From a virus (lineage: Duplodnaviria; Heunggongvirae; Uroviricota; Caudoviricetes): DNA of 36,299 bases. The stretch is from IMG/VR virus record IMGVR_UViG_2657245570_000017, positions 1 to 36,299 of that record; one strand, written 5' to 3'. The notes under the pieces are model-generated. The model ran no database searches. It was not told where the DNA came from and was given only the letters and a program-made list of their open reading frames with translations. The position numbers and the translations under genes were made by a program. This document shows, piece after piece, positions 4,458-11,797 of this stretch (its first letter is position 1; every line of letters starts with the position of its first letter).

Positions 4458-4489
4458 GAAACCAGAACATGCACACACAAAAAAACCGC

Positions 4490-4518
4490 TTGCCATGCCG
4501 CAATCAGTCAGGTTACAT
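4490..4518 (+). promoter_or_regulatory. Candidate sigma70 promoter
   Basis: TTGCCA(4490-4495)-17 nt-TTACAT(4513-4518). Confidence 0.35.
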
Positions 4519-4524
4519 TTCCGC

Positions 4525-4599
4525 TGCACCTCATAAAACGGGTGCCGGGTTTCGCAGCCTGCTGACTAGCAAAGCGCACAACCGCGCCAGCGGTTTTTT
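4525..4599 (+). ncRNA. Candidate small structured RNA (about 75 nt)
   Basis: Between the promoter-like motif and a hairpin plus T7 run (stem 4580-4593, T-run 4593-4599); no RBS-led ORF in this interval. Confidence 0.3.
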
Positions 4600-4779
4600 T
4601 GTGCGTACTGTATTGCCACGTCTTTTTCGCACACGAATTATGGCGGGGCGTACGGGGCCGACTTCGGTCGGGCCGGGTTCTTTGCTAGCCGGTACTGCGA
4701 ACCTCGTACGTCTCGCCACCCACAGTTTCGCAGCTCTGGATGGTGAGTTTTCAAAACTTACTAGCAAAGAGGCCACACC

Positions 4780-5010
4780 ATGGCAAACCGCAAACAGCAC
4801 CGCGCTATCGCGGAGCGTCGTCACATCCAGACTGAAATCGATCGCAGACTCACCCGCGCTGCACACATCGCCTTTATCATGCAATCCAACACATTGCACA
4901 GACTCAACAGCACTATTTCAGCCGACTACTGCGCCGCTGTATTCAGCTATCTGGCGGAAGACCTCCTGTCTCTTCAGGATCTCATCCAGCAGCAAAACAA
5001 ACCCCATTAA
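4780..5010 (+). CDS. Hypothetical basic protein
   Basis: 76 aa; strong RBS AAAGAGG 7 nt upstream of ATG at 4780. Confidence 0.5.
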   Translation: MANRKQHRAIAERRHIQTEIDRRLTRAAHIAFIMQSNTLHRLNSTISADYCAAVFSYLAEDLLSLQDLIQQQNKPH

Positions 5011-5083
5011 TTCCTGTTCCGGGCCTTTCCTGCACCTTGCGGCGGGAGGCCTTCGCACATCTGTAGTAAAGAGGATTGCCGCA

Positions 5084-5449
5084 ATGATTCTCGCCAACGA
5101 CTTTCTTGAATACCTGCTCAACACAGAGCGTGATCTTGCCGTTCGCGTGCGTGAACGTTATGACATGTACCTGAAATCCCTGCCTGTACCGCAGCTCGCT
5201 GACGGAAAATTTGTTATTGATGGTCGCTACATGATTGACAGCCACGAGGGGAATTACAGGCTTTACCGCATTGAAGGCGGCACCCCGTCCGTTATTGGCA
5301 TTTACCAGCGCCCATCCTCTGCGATCGTCGATGTGATTGCCGACAGCATCCGCATCACACACCACCATGCCGACACAGAAGACACTGTGCTGGAGATTCA
5401 GCGGCTGGCTGCCGTTTGCCGTGACACTCTGAATGGTATGACGAAGTAA
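5084..5449 (+). CDS. Hypothetical protein upstream of A
   Basis: 121 aa from ATG at 5084 (AAGAGG RBS); the 326-aa track ORF upstream of this ATG lacks coding signals. Confidence 0.55.
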   Translation: MILANDFLEYLLNTERDLAVRVRERYDMYLKSLPVPQLADGKFVIDGRYMIDSHEGNYRLYRIEGGTPSVIGIYQRPSSAIVDVIADSIRITHHHADTEDTVLEIQRLAAVCRDTLNGMTK

Positions 5450-5455
5450 ATCAGT

Positions 5456-8278
5456 ATGACGACAGAGTACATCAGGGACTGGCAACAACCGCGCCACGCA
5501 GTAGGACGTGAAGGAACGGAGATCCCCGCACCTGAATCCGCGCTTTCCTCATGGCTGGATGCCTACCGGGTAGAGAACGAGCGCCGCCAGGAAATGGCTG
5601 ATGCGGCGTTCTCCGCCACACCGCTGGGCAACCTGATTAATAAAAGCCTGGACGCACAGGAAAAACAGGACAAAACCATCACACTGGCAGGAGACGCCAG
5701 AAAACAGGCACGCGGCGCGGTGGATGAAGCCATGGCCTCGCTGCGCCTGCTGCCGTCCTATCTGCGCGATCCGCTTATTCGCCACCTCTCCTTCCTGCGC
5801 AAAAAACAGGAAGCCGATCGCCGGAAAGGCAAAAAGAGCTGGCAGGCGGAACGCTATGCACGCGGAACCCTGCGCAAAATATTCGAACGTCTGGACCGCA
5901 CCGATCACCGCTGGCTGACACCGGGTTATCGCTCCCTTGCCGGACGCGAACGCCTGGACGATTTGCTTTACCTGCCGCAGCTCAACAAACACCAGATACA
6001 GACGCTGGCCACCATGACGGCGGCGATGTTCAGCAGCACCTTCGAAAAACTCTGCGATGGCTTTGGCGCGACCGATGGCGAGCTGACCATGGATGTAACG
6101 CTGAAGGCGTATCAGATGCTGGCCCGCATGGCGTTACACCTGCACGCCATGCCTCCACATTATGACGCACTGACAACAGACAAAGACCGGAGGAACGAAC
6201 CAGACACGGAGCTGCTGCCGGGCGCAATCCTTCGCCTGACCTGTGCGCAATGGTGGAAACGCAAACTGTGGCTGTTACGTTGCGAGTGGCGGGAAGAACA
6301 ACTCCGCGCCGCCTGTCTGGTTTCCAGAAAAACATCGCCCTATCTGAGCCAGGACGCGTTAAGCGAGTTTCGCGCACAGCGCGAGAAAACACGCGATTTC
6401 CTGAAAAGTTTCATGCTGGAAAATGAAGACGGGTTCACGATTGATCTCGAGACGGTGTATTACGCGGGAGTAAGTAACCCGGTTCACCGTAAGGCAGAAA
6501 TGATGGCCACCATGAAGGGACTGGAACTTCTGGCCGAAGCCCGTGGCGACAGAGCGGTGTTTCTGACTGTCACCTGCCCGTCAAAATATCACGCAACAAC
6601 GGAGAACGGTCATCCGAATCCCAAATGGAACGGGGCCACAATGCGCAACTCCAGCGATTACCTGGTTAACACGTTTTTTGCGGCGGTCCGCAAAAAACTG
6701 AACCGCGACGGTCTTCGCTGGTATGGCATCCGCACGGTGGAGCCTCACCATGACGGTACCGTACACTGGCATATGATGGTCTTTGCACATCCGGAAGAAA
6801 TCGACAGCATCGTGGCCATCACCCGCGATATTGCCATTCAGGAAGACCGCCACGAGCTGGGCAATGATATTACTCCGCGCTTTAAGGCGGAGTATGTCGA
6901 CGGCTCAAAAGGCACACCAACCAGCTATATCGCGACCTACATTGGAAAAAACCTGGACAGCCGCGCCGTGGATGGCATTGACCCGAAAACGGGCAAACCA
7001 CGCGTTGACCACGAAACCGGAAAATCAATGGCCGAGAGCGTGGAGCGCGCCATCGGCTGGGCGCGCCTTCACCGGGTCCGCCAGTTCCAGTTCTTTGGCA
7101 TCCCCTCCCGTCAGGTGTGGCGTGAACTGCGCCGCCTTGCCAGCCAGATGGCACGCAACCCGGAAGGCCCGCAACGACTGAAGGACGACGCAATGGATGC
7201 GGTACTCGCTGCCGCTGATGCCGGGTGTTTTGCCTCCTACATTGAAAAACAGGGTGGCGTACTTGTTCCACGCAAAGACTACCTGATTCGCACCGCCTAC
7301 GACCTCGCAGATGAGCTGAACGATTACGGCGAACAGAGTGTACAGATTTACGGGATCTGGTCGCCGCTCATCGGGGAGTCTTCCCGCGTGTGCACGCACC
7401 CGGATAACTGGAAGCTGGTAAGACGTAAACCGGAAGCGGAAGACAGCGCCCGCGAAAATGGTTTTGACCTTCAGGGCGGCCCTGCCGCCCCTTGGACTCG
7501 TGGCAATAACTGTCCCCGTGTACAGGAAACAGACAACAACGGGACAGAACAGCCGGAAGAACGGCCAGCACCGTGGCCGCAGCTTCCTGACGGCGTTGAC
7601 GTGAACGAATGGGTGCGCTCACTGAAACGGCACGAACGCCGGGCGCTGATGCGTTCGCTGCGTGACAAACAGGCAAAAAACAGCAGTGATGAAATGCAGA
7701 ACTGGACACAGAGCCGCAAACAGCCACAGCCTTTGCCTGATAACCACGAATTACTCGCTAAAGAATGGCGGGAGTCTGCTGAATCTCTCGGCCTGCATAT
7801 CGGTGAACAGCAGATGCAGCACCTGTTACGGGGCGGCAGTCTGTACGTTGACGGCAGCATCATTGCACCGCAGGGATTTGAAATTGTACGCAAACCGGAT
7901 ACCCGACCGGACAGCCGGATCACGCAGCTCTGGCAGCGCCTGAGCCGTAACCACGGCGTAAGCAGCACGGAGATCCGCCATAACCCGGTCGCCAGCTATC
8001 TGGAACAGCTGGGGGCATCAGACCCCGAAGCCGCCGCACGCCTGGCATCCACACTTCAGCAAGACCAGAACACCATGAAAACACCCGTTACCGTGCTTTC
8101 TGACATGCTGCGCGCCATCCGCGACGCAGAGCACGCACAGAGAATCAGTGAAACCACTGAACGCGCCCGCCGCAAAGCAGACCTGCTGCGGGGTGGCCTG
8201 ACCATTGGAAACAAAAAACAGACAGAAACGGGATTCACAAATCCCGTAAATGAGCAAAAAACGCGCCGCGATATATGA
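5456..8278 (+). CDS. A: Replication initiation endonuclease, P2 gpA-like, with long C-terminal extension
   Basis: 940 aa; HUH-type motif VHWHMMVF and paired catalytic tyrosines YIATYIGK; about 180-250 aa longer than the P2 or 186 A proteins as recalled. Confidence 0.85.
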   Translation: MTTEYIRDWQQPRHAVGREGTEIPAPESALSSWLDAYRVENERRQEMADAAFSATPLGNLINKSLDAQEKQDKTITLAGDARKQARGAVDEAMASLRLLPSYLRDPLIRHLSFLRKKQEADRRKGKKSWQAERYARGTLRKIFERLDRTDHRWLTPGYRSLAGRERLDDLLYLPQLNKHQIQTLATMTAAMFSSTFEKLCDGFGATDGELTMDVTLKAYQMLARMALHLHAMPPHYDALTTDKDRRNEPDTELLPGAILRLTCAQWWKRKLWLLRCEWREEQLRAACLVSRKTSPYLSQDALSEFRAQREKTRDFLKSFMLENEDGFTIDLETVYYAGVSNPVHRKAEMMATMKGLELLAEARGDRAVFLTVTCPSKYHATTENGHPNPKWNGATMRNSSDYLVNTFFAAVRKKLNRDGLRWYGIRTVEPHHDGTVHWHMMVFAHPEEIDSIVAITRDIAIQEDRHELGNDITPRFKAEYVDGSKGTPTSYIATYIGKNLDSRAVDGIDPKTGKPRVDHETGKSMAESVERAIGWARLHRVRQFQFFGIPSRQVWRELRRLASQMARNPEGPQRLKDDAMDAVLAAADAGCFASYIEKQGGVLVPRKDYLIRTAYDLADELNDYGEQSVQIYGIWSPLIGESSRVCTHPDNWKLVRRKPEAEDSARENGFDLQGGPAAPWTRGNNCPRVQETDNNGTEQPEERPAPWPQLPDGVDVNEWVRSLKRHERRALMRSLRDKQAKNSSDEMQNWTQSRKQPQPLPDNHELLAKEWRESAESLGLHIGEQQMQHLLRGGSLYVDGSIIAPQGFEIVRKPDTRPDSRITQLWQRLSRNHGVSSTEIRHNPVASYLEQLGASDPEAAARLASTLQQDQNTMKTPVTVLSDMLRAIRDAEHAQRISETTERARRKADLLRGGLTIGNKKQTETGFTNPVNEQKTRRDI
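8228..8247. promoter_or_regulatory. Palindrome 1, ACGGGATT-N4-AATCCCGT
   Basis: Perfect 8-bp inverted arms; lies in the 3' end of A, 127 bp upstream of the parM-like start. Confidence 0.5.
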
Positions 8279-8301
8279 AGCGCGCATAAAACAGGCAAAA
8301 A

Positions 8302-8321
8302 CGGGATTTCAGAATCCCGTA
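8302..8321. promoter_or_regulatory. Palindrome 2, ACGGGATT-N4-AATCCCGT
   Basis: Second copy 74 bp downstream of the first, 34 bp upstream of the parM-like start, overlapping a promoter-like region. Confidence 0.5.
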
Positions 8322-8354
8322 AACGATTAATTAATCAACATAAGGAAAAGCGAC

Positions 8355-9314
8355 ATGAAAATTTGTATCGATGACGGCTCCACCAACATCAAGCTGGCAT
8401 GGACTGAGAACGGCGAACGCCGCAACGCCATCAGCCCGAACAGCTTCAAGTCGGAATGGTCTGCGCCGTTCGGTGGCACGCAGCCCGCGAACTACATGCT
8501 TGATGGCGTGCGCTATGGTTTTGATCCGGTCAGCGATCGCTTTGTCCAGACGACCGACACGCAATACCAGTACAGCGATGTGAATGTCATTGCCATTCAT
8601 CACGCGCTGGTCAAATCAGGCATCACACCACAGGAAGTGGATGTGGTTGTCACCCTGCCACTGAGCGAATATTTCGACACAAACGCACAGCCGGACATGG
8701 CCAACATCAACCGCAAAAAAGCAAACGTCATGCGCCCGGTGGCGTACCAGAACGGAAAAGCATTCACTATCCGTAACGTACGGGTTATGCCTGAATCCAT
8801 TCCGGCTGGTTTTAAAGCACTGGCTGACATGAGTCCGTTTGAATCCCTGCTGATTGTGGATTTAGGCGGAACCACGCTGGATGTGGCAAAGGTTCAGGGA
8901 CAACTGGCAGGTATCAGCCAGGTGTTTTGCGATCCACACGTAGGCGTTTCCCTGATGGCCGATGCCGTACTGTCGGTGATGGCCACTAACGGTATGCGCA
9001 CCAGTCACCACATCGCCAATACCATTATCGAACATCGCCATGATGAAGCCTGGCTGCGCCAGCACATCCACAATGACGCGCATTACGCCAGCCTGATGGC
9101 GGTTATTCGTGAAAAGGAAGAAACACTGAAACAACGCGTGATCCGCGCGCTGGCGGTTTTTTCGGGTTACGGGCGGGTGATGGTTGTCGGTGGCGGGGCG
9201 GAGATTGTGGCACCCGCTATCCGCGAAGCCTGCGGAGTTAATGCGACTTTCATCGCGGACGGGGTGCCACAATTTGCTCTGGTTAATGGGCTGTACGCAA
9301 TGAACAAGGAGTAA
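8355..9314 (+). CDS. parM: Actin-like segregation ATPase, ParM/StbA family
   Basis: 319 aa; MKICIDDGSTNIKLAW, ISPNSFK, YSDVNVIAIHHAL, MPESIPAG, LIVDLGGTTLD, VVGGGAE and LVNGLY are collinear with R1 ParM as recalled; AAGGA RBS. Confidence 0.8.
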   Translation: MKICIDDGSTNIKLAWTENGERRNAISPNSFKSEWSAPFGGTQPANYMLDGVRYGFDPVSDRFVQTTDTQYQYSDVNVIAIHHALVKSGITPQEVDVVVTLPLSEYFDTNAQPDMANINRKKANVMRPVAYQNGKAFTIRNVRVMPESIPAGFKALADMSPFESLLIVDLGGTTLDVAKVQGQLAGISQVFCDPHVGVSLMADAVLSVMATNGMRTSHHIANTIIEHRHDEAWLRQHIHNDAHYASLMAVIREKEETLKQRVIRALAVFSGYGRVMVVGGGAEIVAPAIREACGVNATFIADGVPQFALVNGLYAMNKE

Positions 9315-9318
9315 ACCA

Positions 9319-9630
9319 ATGACGACACCAACCAGAAGAATAAGTTTCTATCTGAAGCCAGCTGCCGTCAAGAACGAAGGAGAAGCATGCGCCTGGCTGG
9401 ACAGTCTTACACCAGAAGCCCGCAAAAGCGGCCAACGCGTGGCTTTTCTGGCCGGGCTGGCACTTCTGAAGACGAATCCGGCAGAGGCTTACCGACTGGC
9501 CGCATGGGCTGATGATGAGATGTTACCTGTGACACAAATCAGCTCAAAAAAGTTTGAAGCACAGTCTGCACCAGTGGCTAAGATAACCAGCCAGATGGCT
9601 GGGAATATCCGGGCGTTATTTCCTGAGTAA
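9319..9630 (+). CDS. ParR/StbB-like centromere-binding adaptor (putative)
   Basis: 103 aa, 4 bp after the parM-like gene, AAGGAG RBS; N-terminal region ISFYLKP...RVAFLAGLALLK resembles ParR; sits at the parR position. Confidence 0.5.
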   Translation: MTTPTRRISFYLKPAAVKNEGEACAWLDSLTPEARKSGQRVAFLAGLALLKTNPAEAYRLAAWADDEMLPVTQISSKKFEAQSAPVAKITSQMAGNIRALFPE

Positions 9631-9758
9631 AAGCATCTGCGCGAAAAATGCTCACGTTTATAGAGACAGTATCATTCCATTTGGCACACTTACTTCAATA
9701 ATCGATCTGTTAAACAAATAGATTGTCTATTATCTATCGATTAAAACGATCAATTATC

Positions 9759-9786
9759 TTGACAGTAATGTGCCTTTTTGTAAGAT
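9759..9786 (+). promoter_or_regulatory. Candidate sigma70 promoter with GATC in the -10
   Basis: TTGACA(9759-9764)-16 nt-TAAGAT(9781-9786); GATC at 9784-9787 overlaps the -10; two more GATC upstream at 9704 and 9748. Confidence 0.5.
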
Positions 9787-9835
9787 CGTTCGCATTGTGA
9801 GCGACAAGATAATTGCGCGGCATTGTCCATGCAAA

Positions 9836-9865
9836 ACGCCCCAATAGCAGCAACTATTGGGGCGT
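9836..9865. other. Perfect 12-bp stem hairpin in leader
   Basis: ACGCCCCAATAG-CAGCAA-CTATTGGGGCGT; a short T-run follows only on the minus strand. Confidence 0.6.
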
Positions 9866-9994
9866 AAAACTCGGTCGGACTCACTTAACCTGATATGCGT
9901 GCCTTCCGAAGTAAATCAAAATGTGCGTCGTATATTTTATTGCTTACACGCACCTCTGTAAAGGCACGCATATTTTTCCTATGAGGTAAATAAA

Positions 9995-10264
9995 GTGCGG
10001 GCTAAAACAGGTATTTGCAAGAACCCTCATCGTTATAATCCAACATTTCTGTCTCTCCCTGAATATCAAGGACAAGAAGGTCGGCACAAATGCGCTGCCT
10101 GTGCTTTTGAGCTAGGCATAAAAGATGCGCTTGAAGGACGCGCTATGGCTCAGAATGATTTAGTTTTAGCTAACATTCCGTTTAGCCAGGCTGGAACTGT
10201 AAGGCACAGAGATGCCTATGAAGCATATGTTCGTGGTTGGCGATTAATACACAGCAACAATTGA
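9995..10264 (+). CDS. Orphan hypothetical protein (89 aa), moron-like
   Basis: GTG start with GAGG RBS 8 nt upstream; own promoter and terminator; AT-rich context; no family recognised. Confidence 0.55.
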   Translation: MRAKTGICKNPHRYNPTFLSLPEYQGQEGRHKCAACAFELGIKDALEGRAMAQNDLVLANIPFSQAGTVRHRDAYEAYVRGWRLIHSNN

Positions 10265-10273
10265 TACTTTTGA

Positions 10274-10297
10274 AGCGCCGATAAGGCGCTTTTTTTG
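10274..10297 (+). terminator. Rho-independent terminator
   Basis: AGCGCC-GATAA-GGCGCT followed by T6. Confidence 0.75.
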
Positions 10298-10379
10298 TTT
10301 GCACGATAGTGCACAAGTTTGCACAATTTTTTTGAACGACTTTTTGTACTTCCGGCCCGCGTGGTGGCTGGATCCGTCA

Positions 10380-10620
10380 AGGATCCGTACGTGCACAAAA
10401 AAACGCGTTTTTTCTGCGCGCAGGTGACGGGGGAACAGCCCGCGTTTCAGGGGGTAAATAGCATCCCCTGAACGATGTCGCAGCAACACAACAGAATGGC
10501 TGTATTTCTCACGCTGAGCGTGAAAAAGACGTGAGGGCTTTTGATTTGATGGGGTGGCAGATAAGGCCGTCAAAATCGCACTGAGGCGGCGAGAACATGC
10601 AGTCAGCGCGATGGGATTGC
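10380..10620. other. Putative cos packaging region
   Basis: Non-coding interval 3' of the portal gene, as in P2; palindrome AAAAAAACGCGTTTTTT (10396-10412); GGATCCGT direct repeat; G-rich GGTGACGGGGGAACAGCC (10423-10440) and GAGGCGGCGAG (about 10590) loosely resemble the P2/186 cohesive-end sequence as recalled. Confidence 0.35.
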
Positions 10621-10698
10621 GTAAGAGCCTGACCGTCGATGATGGCAATAAGCTGGAAGACGTCGTGAAATTATCTGATTGATACAGGAGCTGGAGAG

Positions 10699-10723
10699 TC
10701 GGGGCATAAATTTTTTATGCCCC
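10699..10723. other. Hairpin downstream of the portal gene
   Basis: GGGGCATA-loop-TATGCCCC 8-bp stem; no clean T-run on either strand. Confidence 0.4.
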
Positions 10724-10750
10724 GGCGAAGCAGCAGACAAGCGAAGCGCG

Positions 10751-11797
10751 TCAGGATGTGGGCTGGGTGTCCAGCAGTGCGTAAGGGTTAAAGCGGATCA
10801 CCTCTTCGCCAAGCCAGTCATTGATGTGCTTCATAGCCTCCATGACGGGCATCAGCTCGTTAATTGCGTAAACCCGCGCGGCCTTCTCCACATCACCAAA
10901 CGCACTTTTTTCGCCCGGCATTGCCCCCATCAGTTGCGGCGGAACGCGGTGCGCAGCCAGCACATCATCACGGGATGCCGCCTTAACATTCATGAACTCA
11001 TCCTTTGCGGTGATCTGCTGGAACGGCAAAATTTGCACCCCCTCTTTGCCCCCGTTGGGCGCGTGGATGAGCACGTTTTTAAACGCACCACCACCACGCG
11101 CACCCTGTAACGTTTCTTTCAGGGAGTCCATGCTTTCGCGGTTTACCTGCGCTGCACCGATGTAGATGATGCACCCGGCGTGGGATCCGTTGTCGTAATA
11201 CAGTTTTCTGAACATGTCCGCCGAATGAGACAGGCTGGCCGAGAGTAATGCGCCAAGATATTCCGGCATGCCGTAAATTTCCTGGTTAATGTCCGGATTC
11301 ATCAGGTGGCACACTTTGCCAGGGCGAAACTGAAACGCGTCCTTGCCATCCTGCACATACCACCATGATTCAAGATCGCTTCCGCGTCGCATGTATTTCG
11401 CCAGTGCGTGCCGTAATTTAAGTGGTTCGCCGAGCATATTGCTCCGAAGCTCAAGGAATGCGTTACCGAACACAAACCAGTCCAGCGCCAGCGCCGAGAA
11501 ATCCTGCCGGGAAAGCAGCGGGTGCGGGATGTAGCAACCGAGCAATACATTGCGCTTAAAGTAAAGCGCAGACTGATGCCAGGACGTTTGCCGGGCGGCT
11601 CTTGCCAGACCGTACCAGTCCACCGGGGTTTCATACCACCGCCCGTTATCAGCACAGTACATATTGTCCAGCAGGTCATGCCCGGTCAGGCGATAAGGAC
11701 CATCAAATGTGAATGCACTGAGCGATGATTCTTTCCTGAGCGCATCAGCGAGATCAATGCGTGAACTCATGCGCACTTTTTTATTTTTTCTGCTCAT
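10751..11797 (-). CDS. Q: Portal protein, P2 gpQ-like
   Basis: 348 aa, leftward, overlaps the terminase gene stop; size and position match gpQ. Confidence 0.8.
   Translation of the reverse strand: MSRKNKKVRMSSRIDLADALRKESSLSAFTFDGPYRLTGHDLLDNMYCADNGRWYETPVDWYGLARAARQTSWHQSALYFKRNVLLGCYIPHPLLSRQDFSALALDWFVFGNAFLELRSNMLGEPLKLRHALAKYMRRGSDLESWWYVQDGKDAFQFRPGKVCHLMNPDINQEIYGMPEYLGALLSASLSHSADMFRKLYYDNGSHAGCIIYIGAAQVNRESMDSLKETLQGARGGGAFKNVLIHAPNGGKEGVQILPFQQITAKDEFMNVKAASRDDVLAAHRVPPQLMGAMPGEKSAFGDVEKAARVYAINELMPVMEAMKHINDWLGEEVIRFNPYALLDTQPTS

Follow-up and report, generated by a model that had tools for sequence, protein, structure and literature searches.

Gene A of phage P2 (761 aa) and that of phage 186 (694 aa) encode HUH/Tyr rolling-circle initiators built on a Phage_GPA core with an HUH motif and a YxxxY tyrosine pair. 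The origin lies inside each gene, and both proteins finish at a conserved end of their own. In P2, A is followed by the small gene orf91 and the minus-strand genes old and tin. The region between gpA and gpQ has been described as an accessory and defence hotspot in P2-like phages, where near-identical phages carry alternative cassettes as cargo; roughly one in four of the P2-like phages of E. coli has a putative partition system there (Rousset et al. 2022, PMC9122126, in the part of the article available to us). That part of the article sets the locus as the genes lying between gpA and gpQ.

Type II ParMRC systems of plasmids R1 and NR1 (StbA/StbB) place parM (PF06406/PF21523) before parR (PF10784), with repeats directly upstream of parM. 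In the R1 family the centromere consists of some ten direct 11-bp iterons in an array, and in R1 these iterons flank the par promoter. A relative of parM on IncL/M plasmids is accompanied by direct TATTTTTC repeats, without palindromes of the type described below.

We analysed a 36,299-nt stretch of viral DNA (the window), which is, judged by its sequence, a P88-like (Xuanwuvirus, P2-like) prophage, with 96-97% nucleotide identity to phages P88, P884B11 and Shae_phiSM. P88 and other Xuanwuvirus or P88-like prophages, in which a replication endonuclease, ParM and a partition protein are found, carry essentially the same element with only point differences: A-parM-parR at 96-97% nucleotide identity, a 940-aa A and both repeats. 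A literature search gave nothing specific on the tail of P88 A or on a P88 parC. Features are listed in Table 1.

Table 1. Features of gene A and the adjoining cargo module in the window
Feature	Position	Strand	Basis
Gene A, GpA-type HUH rolling-circle replication initiator, 940 aa plus stop	5456-8278	+	ORF list; Pfam PF05840
Catalytic Phage_GPA domain with HUH motif and Tyr pair, aa 179-503	5990-6964	+	Pfam; alignment with P2 and 186
Probable replication origin (nick region) within A, codons ~677-686 (APWTRGNNC)	7484-7514	+	Aligns with annotated P2 nick site and 186 ori
Conserved C-terminal alpha/beta domain of A, aa ~764-870	7745-8065	+	AlphaFold2; homologues ending just past the domain
C-terminal helix of A, aa ~877-913, lineage-specific, cargo-independent	8084-8194	+	AlphaFold2; all four cargo types
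Cargo-specific read-through end of A, codons 909-940 plus stop; left edge of parMR module	8179-8278	+	Homology loss; dN/dS
Exchangeable cargo module: end of A, repeats, parM, parR, AT-rich spacer, ORF 9995-10264, terminator 10272-10292	8179-10296		Comparison with L004 and L005
Left 42-nt repeat unit; palindrome 1 at 8228-8247 (ACGGGATTCACAAATCCCGT), codons 925-931 of A	8212-8253		Sequence; L072 and Hafnia comparison
Candidate weak parM promoter between palindromes, ATGAGC-16 nt-TATATG	8250-8277	+	Reading of sequence
Right 42-nt repeat unit; palindrome 2 at 8301-8320 (ACGGGATTTCAGAATCCCGT), in A-parM spacer	8285-8326		Sequence; Hafnia comparison
parM, actin-like segregation ATPase, 319 aa	8355-9314	+	PF06406 E=6.9e-82; PF21523 E=6.2e-69
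parR, adaptor / centromere-binding protein, 103 aa	9319-9630	+	PF10784 Plasmid_stab_B E=9.8e-24

The C-terminal module of A

The window's A resembles P2 A and 186 A in its core. Its match to PF05840 is strong (E=3.9e-130, 434 bits against a cut-off of 31.4), and the residues of the HUH motif (H437-W-H439) and of the tyrosine pair (Y491-IAT-Y495) do not vary when the protein is aligned with P2 and 186. A sequence-only reading of the same DNA had placed both motifs in the first 500 residues of a 940-aa ORF, which agrees with these residues and with the ORF list; the P88 homologue is annotated at equal length. Identity to P2 A and 186 A is 31-35% over aa ~77-744, and the window's A differs from both by an N-terminal insert of ~55 aa.

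That reading had further proposed that A carries a C-terminal extension of roughly 180-250 aa. BLASTP homology does end at aa 744 (P2 A) and aa 739 (186 A), leaving ~196 residues in the expected size range; the ends of P2 A and 186 A beyond the match measure 74 and 45 residues. However, the apparent size owes something to the use of the two shortest references: GpA relatives of 830-946 aa are common, and an alignment of the PHROG GpA profile phrog_91 (852 positions) spans tail residues 11-196 and reaches the profile end (E=1e-20). The C-terminus of P2 A can itself be aligned to the N-terminal half of the tail domain. Searching 1.84 billion representative sequences with the tail (phmmer) gave 23 matches, and all of the divergent ones cover tail residues ~10-116, a region which in one 841-aa homologue (P0024) is the C-terminus. 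Other homologues likewise end just after this domain (P0022/23, P0028-37 and the 871-aa A of L072). Only ~75 residues (aa ~867-940) extend past the ends of these homologues, and of these only the last 32 are peculiar to the parMR context. Homology to other GpA C-termini holds for aa ~754-911 and not for aa 912-940. A conserved C-terminus in related A proteins accounts for about two thirds of the supposed extension.

AlphaFold2 predicted a folded domain at aa 764-870 (pLDDT 75-90, order H-H-E-E-E-H-H-H), a single long helix at aa ~877-913 (pLDDT 60-70) and disorder in the last 26 residues (pLDDT ~40). The earlier description of the tail as low-complexity is therefore contradicted, both by this fold and by a sequence entropy of 4.03 bits against 4.15 in the rest of A; its richness in Gln, Arg and Glu was overstated, with Q+R+E at 26% compared with 21%. 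The dN/dS ratio is 0.135 for aa 745-866, with the domain, and 0.20 for aa 867-908, with most of the helix, and the helix is kept with all four cargo types found behind A and in the A protein of a Hafnia relative. Pfam identified no family in the tail alone (E up to 1), and Foldseek comparison of the tail model with the PDB returned nothing at E <= 0.001, with TM-scores below 0.25; the structural search thus gives no functional hint for the domain.

The sequence-only reading had suggested a fused accessory domain, and a discrete folded domain followed by a helix is indeed present. It is, however, an exchangeable module that is usual at the C-terminus in a GpA subfamily, and not a new fusion. 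P2 A has only a stub of the domain and 186 A almost nothing, whereas the window's A has the complete domain of ~105 aa and the helix. The module also has no link to partition, since it is equally present with methyltransferase/ATPase, protease/AAA or unknown-gene cargo. In the arrangement that we propose, the catalytic HUH/Tyr core and a probable origin within the gene itself are followed by this exchangeable module, consisting of a linker, the ~105-residue alpha/beta domain and the ~35-residue helix, and the functional protein would effectively end near ...RRKA-LL (aa ~911). We also considered derivation of aa 867-940 from a once-separate downstream gene like the 155-aa ORF of L072, and this is unproven, as BLASTP found only the last 21 residues to be shared.

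The hotspot junction and the last 32 codons of A

The window shares the gpA-gpQ hotspot, with its left junction inside the gpA ORF, at codon 909, and not between genes as in the published definition (PMC9122126, available part). Near-identical A genes diverge completely beyond nt ~8178. L004 and L005, two relatives with methyltransferase/ATPase cargo, are homologous to the window as far as 8178, where similarity drops off sharply, and then from 10297 onward, shortly ahead of the portal gene gpQ. Four cargo types occupy this one site, and at least four different terminal peptides of A were seen, one per cargo. With parMR, A ends ...DLLRGGLT..RRDI (940 aa; in the window ...TGFTNPVNEQKTRRDI). With a D12 methyltransferase and AAA_15/21 genes it ends ...TLLQKRGKQHF..HHEG, with three unknown minus-strand genes ...ISLLHRTR (910 aa), and with AAA and peptidase S8 genes ...SLLQDKGNSEKKK (916 aa). 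In the window, then, the stop codon of A comes from the downstream cargo, unlike in P2 and 186. The available part of PMC9122126 did not yield the observation that each cargo gives A its own C-terminal peptide.

The last 32 codons show no protein-level constraint. Their dN/dS is 1.16, against 0.08-0.25 elsewhere in A. Synonymous and nonsynonymous variants number 7:20 there, whereas the tail before them has 61:44 (Fisher p=0.004) and the remainder of A 398:230 (p=0.00015). The Hafnia A crosses the palindrome in a different frame and stops inside it, as does a -1 slip variant (P0221). In L072, A is only 871 aa long, and the left repeat is crossed by a separate 155-aa ORF that shares the last 22 codons. 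From the substitution pattern, the frame used in Hafnia and the different covering ORF in L072, we conclude that these codons are translated but, as far as comparison of relatives can tell, not selected as protein.

The tail of A thus has the layers of a shared domain, a helix and a cargo-specific end, and we consider it likely that the last of these is an incidental read-through into a parMR cassette whose palindromes are ParR sites. The hotspot starts within the A frame, at nt ~8179, so that the resident cassette supplies A with its stop and its final 6 to 33 codons. As the cassette here consists of parM-parR and its upstream control region, A reads 32 more codons, through the left repeat and its 20-bp palindrome. 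It also follows from a left boundary inside gpA that GpA C-termini of different length (910, 916, 940 and 941 aa) report the cargo that follows and not domains. The overlap of A with the palindrome is then an accident of the position of the recombination junction, ordinary phage mosaicism and not a fused function. The length of A is what mosaic exchange normally produces, and not a new fusion of replication with partition; mostly, this corrects the sequence-only reading. The methyltransferase-cargo ending faintly resembles that of the window's A (K..F[ST]N...[DE][EQ]K), and the junction could accordingly reflect recombination between diverged alleles and not a fully non-homologous replacement.

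The parMR cassette and its paired repeats

As in R1 and NR1, parR lies directly downstream of parM. The window's element differs from those plasmid loci in being almost always chromosomal. Of 5426 complete E. coli genomes, 1321 (about 24%) had the A-parMR junction, a count consistent with the quarter of E. coli P2-like phages given in the available part of PMC9122126. Of 1465 places in complete E. coli genomes, 1463 were chromosomal, so the residence on an extrachromosomal replicon expected of ParMRC was not found; one 34.5-kb circular 'plasmid' record is a whole phage genome with its integrase still present. A tblastn search of 72,556 plasmids with ParR gave seven records, all overlapping the seven recovered by DNA search at >=90% identity, several of which also hold a phage replication endonuclease. 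No plasmid relative of ParR outside P88-like elements was found in this set, which leaves no independent plasmid parC for comparison. All ParR relatives examined, including more distant ones at 42-82% identity, adjoin GpA in P2-like prophages, and among the more distant ones only that of Hafnia has diverged enough to be informative.

Two direct 42-nt repeat units, 73 nt apart, precede parM, and each contains one palindrome with the core CGGGA-N8-TCCCG. Palindrome 1 reads ACGGGATT-CACA-AATCCCGT and, as the sequence-only reading had stated, falls in the last codons of A. With up to three mismatches allowed, the window contains these two palindromes and no further copy; the chance expectation is 0.1, and none of 100 shuffled sequences contained two or more. 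In L072, homology to the window resumes at 8214 despite the different upstream ORF. Compared with Hafnia, the left and right repeats are 81% and 86% identical and parM 87.5%, against 56-67% for the adjoining tail of A, and the 73-nt spacing is kept. By these comparisons, the repeats and palindromes travel with parMR. The idea that the end of A doubles as a cis site is thus right in the physical sense, because the palindrome does occupy codons of A, but the palindrome belongs to parMR and the A frame merely runs into it.

The palindromes vary among close relatives. Palindrome 1 of P88 (the L003 row) is ACGGGACTCACGAATCCCGC, differing from the window at 8234, 8239 and 8247. Among 44 close relatives, 6-7 of the 20 palindrome sites vary, compared with 0.20 per site in the coding tail, which makes the palindromes at least as polymorphic as the sequence around them. 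In several variants a pair of the stem is broken, and one relative (L031) persists with one repeat only, a hybrid. Recent exchange of the whole parMR module, and not constraint, may explain why the repeats are more similar to those of Hafnia than the tail of A is.

The palindromes are probably ParR operator or centromere sites flanking a weak promoter. Separated by about 7 helical turns, they would flank the promoter-like element just upstream of parM, recalling the way in which the R1 and NR1 repeats lie directly upstream of parM. This candidate stayed below threshold in a consensus promoter scan, which found no sigma-70 site between A and parM; Hafnia has a similar pair at the corresponding place (ATGAAC-17-TATAAG). 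A ribbon-helix-helix ParR would most likely bind the palindromes, both for autoregulation of parMR and for attachment of ParM filaments, as an analogue of parC; any partition activity is likewise inferred. Two 20-bp palindromes differ from the iterons of R1, and R1-like iteron arrays were absent from 8150-10760. Judged against the R1 arrays and the IncL/M direct repeats, two sites 73 bp apart would be an unusual parC. Rfam models (7400-10800, E <= 1) gave nothing at the palindromes, and only two sub-threshold matches, on a hairpin at 9836-9865. The two-palindrome control region of the parMR cassette, which about one in four P2-like prophages of E. coli carries, is a natural place to start in asking why an integrating phage has a partition system.

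Alternative roles for the palindromes and the tail

The palindromes could instead be two tandem intrinsic terminators for minus-strand transcription (for example late or cargo-derived antisense), embedded at the convergent 3' end of A, and each 42-nt repeat unit would then be a hairpin with its U-tract. A consensus scan flagged both on the minus strand, with 8 stem pairs each (ACGGGATTCTGAAATCCCGT then TTTTTGCC; ACGGGATTTGTGAATCCCGT then TTCTGTCTG), and the hairpins fold at about -10 kcal/mol. The plus-strand A-rich tract that forms the minus-strand T-run lies within the conserved repeat unit, and Hafnia retains it; the P2 hotspot cargo (old, tin) is transcribed opposite to A and toward it. 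The cargo of the window, however, is all on the plus strand (parM, parR and the ORF at 9995), with no minus-strand gene between 8355 and 10750. The stems are only 50% G+C (4 of 8 pairs), the U-tract of palindrome 1 is poor and interrupted, and G-to-A variants give a G-U pair on either strand, so that neither strand is favoured. The Hafnia stems are weaker (-7 to -8 kcal/mol), having lost outer pairs while keeping the core GGGATT/AATCCC, which suggests that sequence recognition matters over stem stability. We regard a terminator role as unlikely, but as a live alternative.

An elaboration of the ParR-site explanation would make the two palindromes a minimal two-site centromere and operator, from which transcription and translation of the early operon displace ParR, so that parMR is switched on only during replication of the phage genome. 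If true, such a device would couple partition or positioning to replication in a P2-like phage that is normally integrated, and we think it very unlikely. On such a scheme, the left site is kept inside the end of any upstream ORF, which is A here and the 155-aa gene in L072.

It is also very unlikely that the overlap is functional, with translation or transcription of A across palindrome 1 competing with ParR binding, or the ParR complex blocking completion of A expression, and initiator expression coupled in this way to derepression or assembly of the partition complex. Palindrome 1 does lie within the A ORF in all 940-, 941- and 946-aa relatives, an ORF ends in or just past the left repeat in L072 and Hafnia too, and A and parMR are on the same strand with no plus-strand terminator predicted between them. 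But the covering ORF is sometimes A and sometimes a 155-aa gene unrelated to it, two frames are used and the stops vary, the last 32 codons are free of protein-level constraint, and the same pattern is expected if the junction simply lies upstream of the ancestral stop codon. That the whole ~196-residue tail is a fused domain dedicated to partition, for instance tethering A or the origin to ParR/ParM, is scarcely credible: A adjoins parMR, its tail carries a palindrome and that tail is rare in databases (23 representative matches), yet the tail up to aa ~908 occurs with three unrelated cargos that lack parMR, parMR is also found behind an A whose tail is of another type (L072), the final 32 residues lack constraint and have a disorder prediction, and this uncoupling of tail type from cargo type already contradicts the idea.

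Since the block around the P2 nick site is conserved, gene A would already hold one cis element inside its coding sequence. The block aligned with this site in the window is the probable origin of replication. In three relatives (P0220, P0221 and P0184), the identity profile against A switches at aa ~680, and on this evidence the origin codons appear to be a recurrent recombination junction. An exchangeable C-terminal module of GpA that starts at the origin codons hints at recombination at the nick site.

Layers of the A protein tail

The A protein is an ordinary GpA family member. Its HUH and tyrosine-pair residues are invariant in an alignment with the A proteins of P2 and 186 and, as the sequence-only reading had recognized, lie within the first 500 residues of the 940-aa product. 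BLASTP matches to P2 A (761 aa) and 186 A (694 aa) stopped at aa 744 and aa 739, respectively, leaving ~196 residues beyond them (nt 7688-8275), an extension of the size and coordinates given in that reading. Its description as low-complexity did not hold up, with Q, R and E making up 26% of residues versus 21% elsewhere and an entropy of 4.03 versus 4.15 bits.

The tail consists of three layers: a conserved domain, a helix and the last 32 codons. A phmmer search of 1.84 billion representative proteins with the 196-residue tail returned only 23 matches, and the divergent ones (28-41% identity) all covered tail residues ~10-116. In P0024, a related A protein of 841 aa and the only full-length divergent match, the matching residues 744-832 are the C-terminus. 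The domain alignment is well defined (...LLRGxxLxIxGxIVSA..GEL.RRKD...DRK...LW.R...H.IDS..IRHDPVG.Y..ML...), relatives in it stop 0-20 residues past the domain, and the C-terminus of P2 A (ALARGATVNYDGKKF) aligns with its first half. The AlphaFold2 model, which for the tail rests on a small alignment, predicted a compact helix-helix-three-strand-three-helix unit at aa 764-870 (pLDDT 75-90), a long helix at aa 877-913 (pLDDT 60-70) and disorder in the last 26 residues (pLDDT ~40). This helix is kept in relatives whatever cargo comes downstream, and is also present in a Hafnia homologue only 44% identical over the tail; phrog_91, the general PHROG GpA family (852 positions), covers tail residues 11-196 to the end of the profile (E=1e-20). 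Of the earlier proposal of a fused accessory domain, the discrete folded unit survives and the idea of a new fusion does not; about two thirds of the extension is a C-terminal module of the GpA family, conserved and exchangeable.

In P2 and 186 the origin lies inside A, and in the GpA family it is already normal for A coding sequence to serve as a cis site as well. The window block homologous to this in-gene origin is ~7484-7514 (A codons ~677-686, APWTRGNNC), aligned with the nick site. The same codons are a recurrent recombination junction: the related A proteins P0220 and P0221 share 20-70% identity with the window protein before aa ~680 and 92-100% after it, and P0184 is their mirror image. 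Judged from these alignments, such a junction would be consistent with recombination at the origin, either initiator-mediated or replication-associated. The A N-terminus (5456-5760, aa 1-100) is a swapped module too: in P0141 and P0143, which stand for clusters of 16,881 and 3,025 sequences, respectively, identity is only 17-27% for the first ~80 residues and 95-100% for the remainder. Compared with P2 A, the window protein has a ~55-residue insert at aa 22-76.

Features of gene A and the parMR cassette (nucleotide positions in the window unless marked aa)
Feature	Position	Strand	Details
Gene A	5456..8278	+	940 aa; ORF list
Pfam Phage_GPA	aa 179-503 of A		Pfam search
HUH motif	H437-W-H439 of A
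Tyrosine pair	Y491/Y495 of A
42-nt direct repeat, two units	8212-8253 and 8285-8326		73 nt apart, one palindrome each
Palindrome 1	8228-8247		ACGGGATT-CACA-AATCCCGT; codons 925-931 of A
Palindrome 2	8301-8320		ACGGGATT-TCAG-AATCCCGT; 76-nt A-parM spacer
Promoter-like site	9759-9786	+	within 9631-9994
Hairpin	9836-9865		perfect 12-bp stem, T-run on minus strand; sub-threshold Rfam ctRNA/sar matches
13-bp inverted repeat	9893-9905 / 9961-9973		within 9631-9994

The end of gene A and the hotspot junction

In two related loci, L004 and L005, the A gene matches the window to nt 8178 (...ERARRKA), after which there is no similarity until 10297, just before the portal gene. In these loci the place of parMR is taken by a D12 methyltransferase and an AAA_15/21 ATPase, and their A proteins end in a different 33-residue peptide. 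With a third cargo type (three unknown minus-strand genes) A has 910 aa and ends ...ISLLHRTR, and with a fourth (AAA ATPase and S8 peptidase) it has 916 aa and ends ...SLLQDKGNSEKKK. On these comparisons, the last 32 codons of A are part of the cargo and not of A. Since relatives with other cargo match again from 10297, the terminator at 10272-10292 is the right edge of the exchangeable cargo; this strong terminator follows an 89-aa ORF (phrog_3941) in window 9995-10292. Cargo exchange downstream of A corresponds to the known gpA-gpQ hotspot of P2-like phages, which Rousset et al. 2022 (PMC9122126) describe; by their account, roughly one in four E. coli P2-like phages has a putative partition system at this site. 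The present comparison adds to that account that the left hotspot junction falls within the A reading frame, around codon 909.

We calculated dN/dS by segment of A on an alignment of 44 distinct sequences, taken from IMG/VR and P88 and running from A to parM. Values were 0.25 for aa 1-178, 0.10 for aa 179-503 and 0.08 for aa 504-744; in the tail, they were 0.135 for aa 745-866, 0.20 for aa 867-908 and 1.16 for aa 909-940. Segregating synonymous and nonsynonymous variants stood at 7:20 in the last 32 codons, versus 61:44 in the preceding tail (Fisher p=0.004) and 398:230 in the rest of A (p=0.00015). Frame and stop position of the A end are not fixed. In the Hafnia A (913 aa) the palindrome is read in a frame shifted by one base, with a TGA stop in the palindrome centre; in P0221 the run at 8213-8218 is one A shorter and the protein ends ...GNKNRQKRDSQIP at TAA 8248-8250; and close relatives include occasional frameshifted A variants of 931-957 codons. 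Immediately ahead of palindrome 1, the six-A run at 8213-8218 (codons 920-921) is a site of slippage, and the Hafnia homologue is in the -1 frame of P0221.

The palindrome-overlapping part of A is unselected read-through from a hotspot junction inside the gene. Palindrome 1 does lie within the last codons of A, and this much remains of the suggestion that a coding region doubles as a cis site; the codons concerned are unselected cargo read-through. The earlier observation on the A tail was real but largely ordinary.

The repeats and the role of the palindromes

The two palindromes were the only copies in the window at up to three mismatches, with 0.1 expected by chance. In the related locus L072, A has a different tail module and is 871 aa long, its stop coming immediately past the conserved domain. 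Between this A and parM lies a separate ORF of 155 aa (L072:3457-3924; IMGVR_UViG_2547132279_000014), whose start overlaps the A stop; it has a zinc-ribbon-like N-terminus (CRQCG...CCRCRG) and matches phrog_21788. Homology with the window returns precisely with the left repeat (nt 8214), and the last 22 codons of the 155-aa ORF (KQTKTGFTNPVNEQKTRSDI) are therefore those ending the window A. An identical G-to-A change is present in the left arm of each L072 palindrome (ACAGGATT). In the comparison with the Hafnia relative, whose ParR is 75% identical, the A tail matches the window at 56-67%, the two repeat units at 81% and 86%, and parM at 87.5%; the cores of the two palindromes (GGGATT-N4-AATCCC) are retained, as is their 73-nt spacing. 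Three independent comparisons thus place the left edge of the parMR module within 8179-8214, with palindrome 1 inside the module, and the repeats travel with parMR. A natural variant, L031:3930-3975, has a single hybrid 42-nt repeat with one palindrome, which apparently arose by unequal recombination between the two units.

The best reading of the palindromes, to which we give slightly better than an even chance, is that they are putative ParR operator/centromere sites. They are directly upstream of parM, seven helical turns apart, and flank a weak promoter-like pair (ATGAGC-16-TATATG, 8250-8277) that is found in Hafnia too and was read by eye, the promoter scan making no call there; the diverged relative keeps the core sequence and not the stem length. 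However, R1-type centromeres are arrays of direct iterons, and an IncL/M parM relative shows such direct repeats where the window has palindromes. The palindromes are also as polymorphic as their flanks among close relatives, and L031 is a natural recombinant with a single hybrid repeat. The main rival, that they are intrinsic terminators of the minus strand, draws on both being flagged as a hairpin with a T-run on that strand and on a hairpin free energy of about -10 kcal/mol; we consider it unlikely, as no minus-strand gene ends nearby and the Hafnia stems are weaker with the core sequence still kept. Other or combined roles take up the remaining probability. The tail layering and read-through conclusions are independent of the choice between ParR sites and terminators.

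A 364-nt AT-rich non-coding stretch (9631-9994) lies 3' of parR and may represent a small antisense RNA, or else serve the cassette as another cis site. The parR gene is mosaic in its 3' half (~9515-9630): in several relatives parM shows ~94% nucleotide identity, homology is lost near 9515, and ParR is only ~55% identical overall. The N-terminal part of ParR, presumably the DNA-binding part, is unchanged among those relatives.

Prophage identity and distribution

The window, 36.3 kb long, is a complete P88-type prophage of the P2 family (genus Xuanwuvirus, Peduoviridae), and the element is essentially phage P88. Escherichia phage P88, Xuanwuvirus P884B11 and Citrobacter phage Shae_phiSM match the A-parM-parR region of the window (5456-9630) at 96-97% identity; gene order is unchanged in P88, whose 'replication endonuclease' likewise has an annotated length of 940 aa. 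Upstream of A, a mechanical 326-aa ORF (4469-5449) has a weak, sub-threshold Ash-family match as its sole hit, and P88 has two small genes annotated in the matching region (a derepression protein and a 121-aa hypothetical protein), so the ORF as listed is probably no real gene.

The junction sequence was found in 1321 of 5426 complete E. coli genomes. Its places there were chromosomal in 1463 of 1465 cases, and parMR is therefore no marker of a plasmid prophage, at least as a stable state. One complete P88-like genome of 34,461 bp with integrase, A and parMR (NZ_CP148288.1) is on record as a circular plasmid from E. coli; the assembly may have captured the phage in excised or replicating form, or this may be a plasmid state that occurs rarely.
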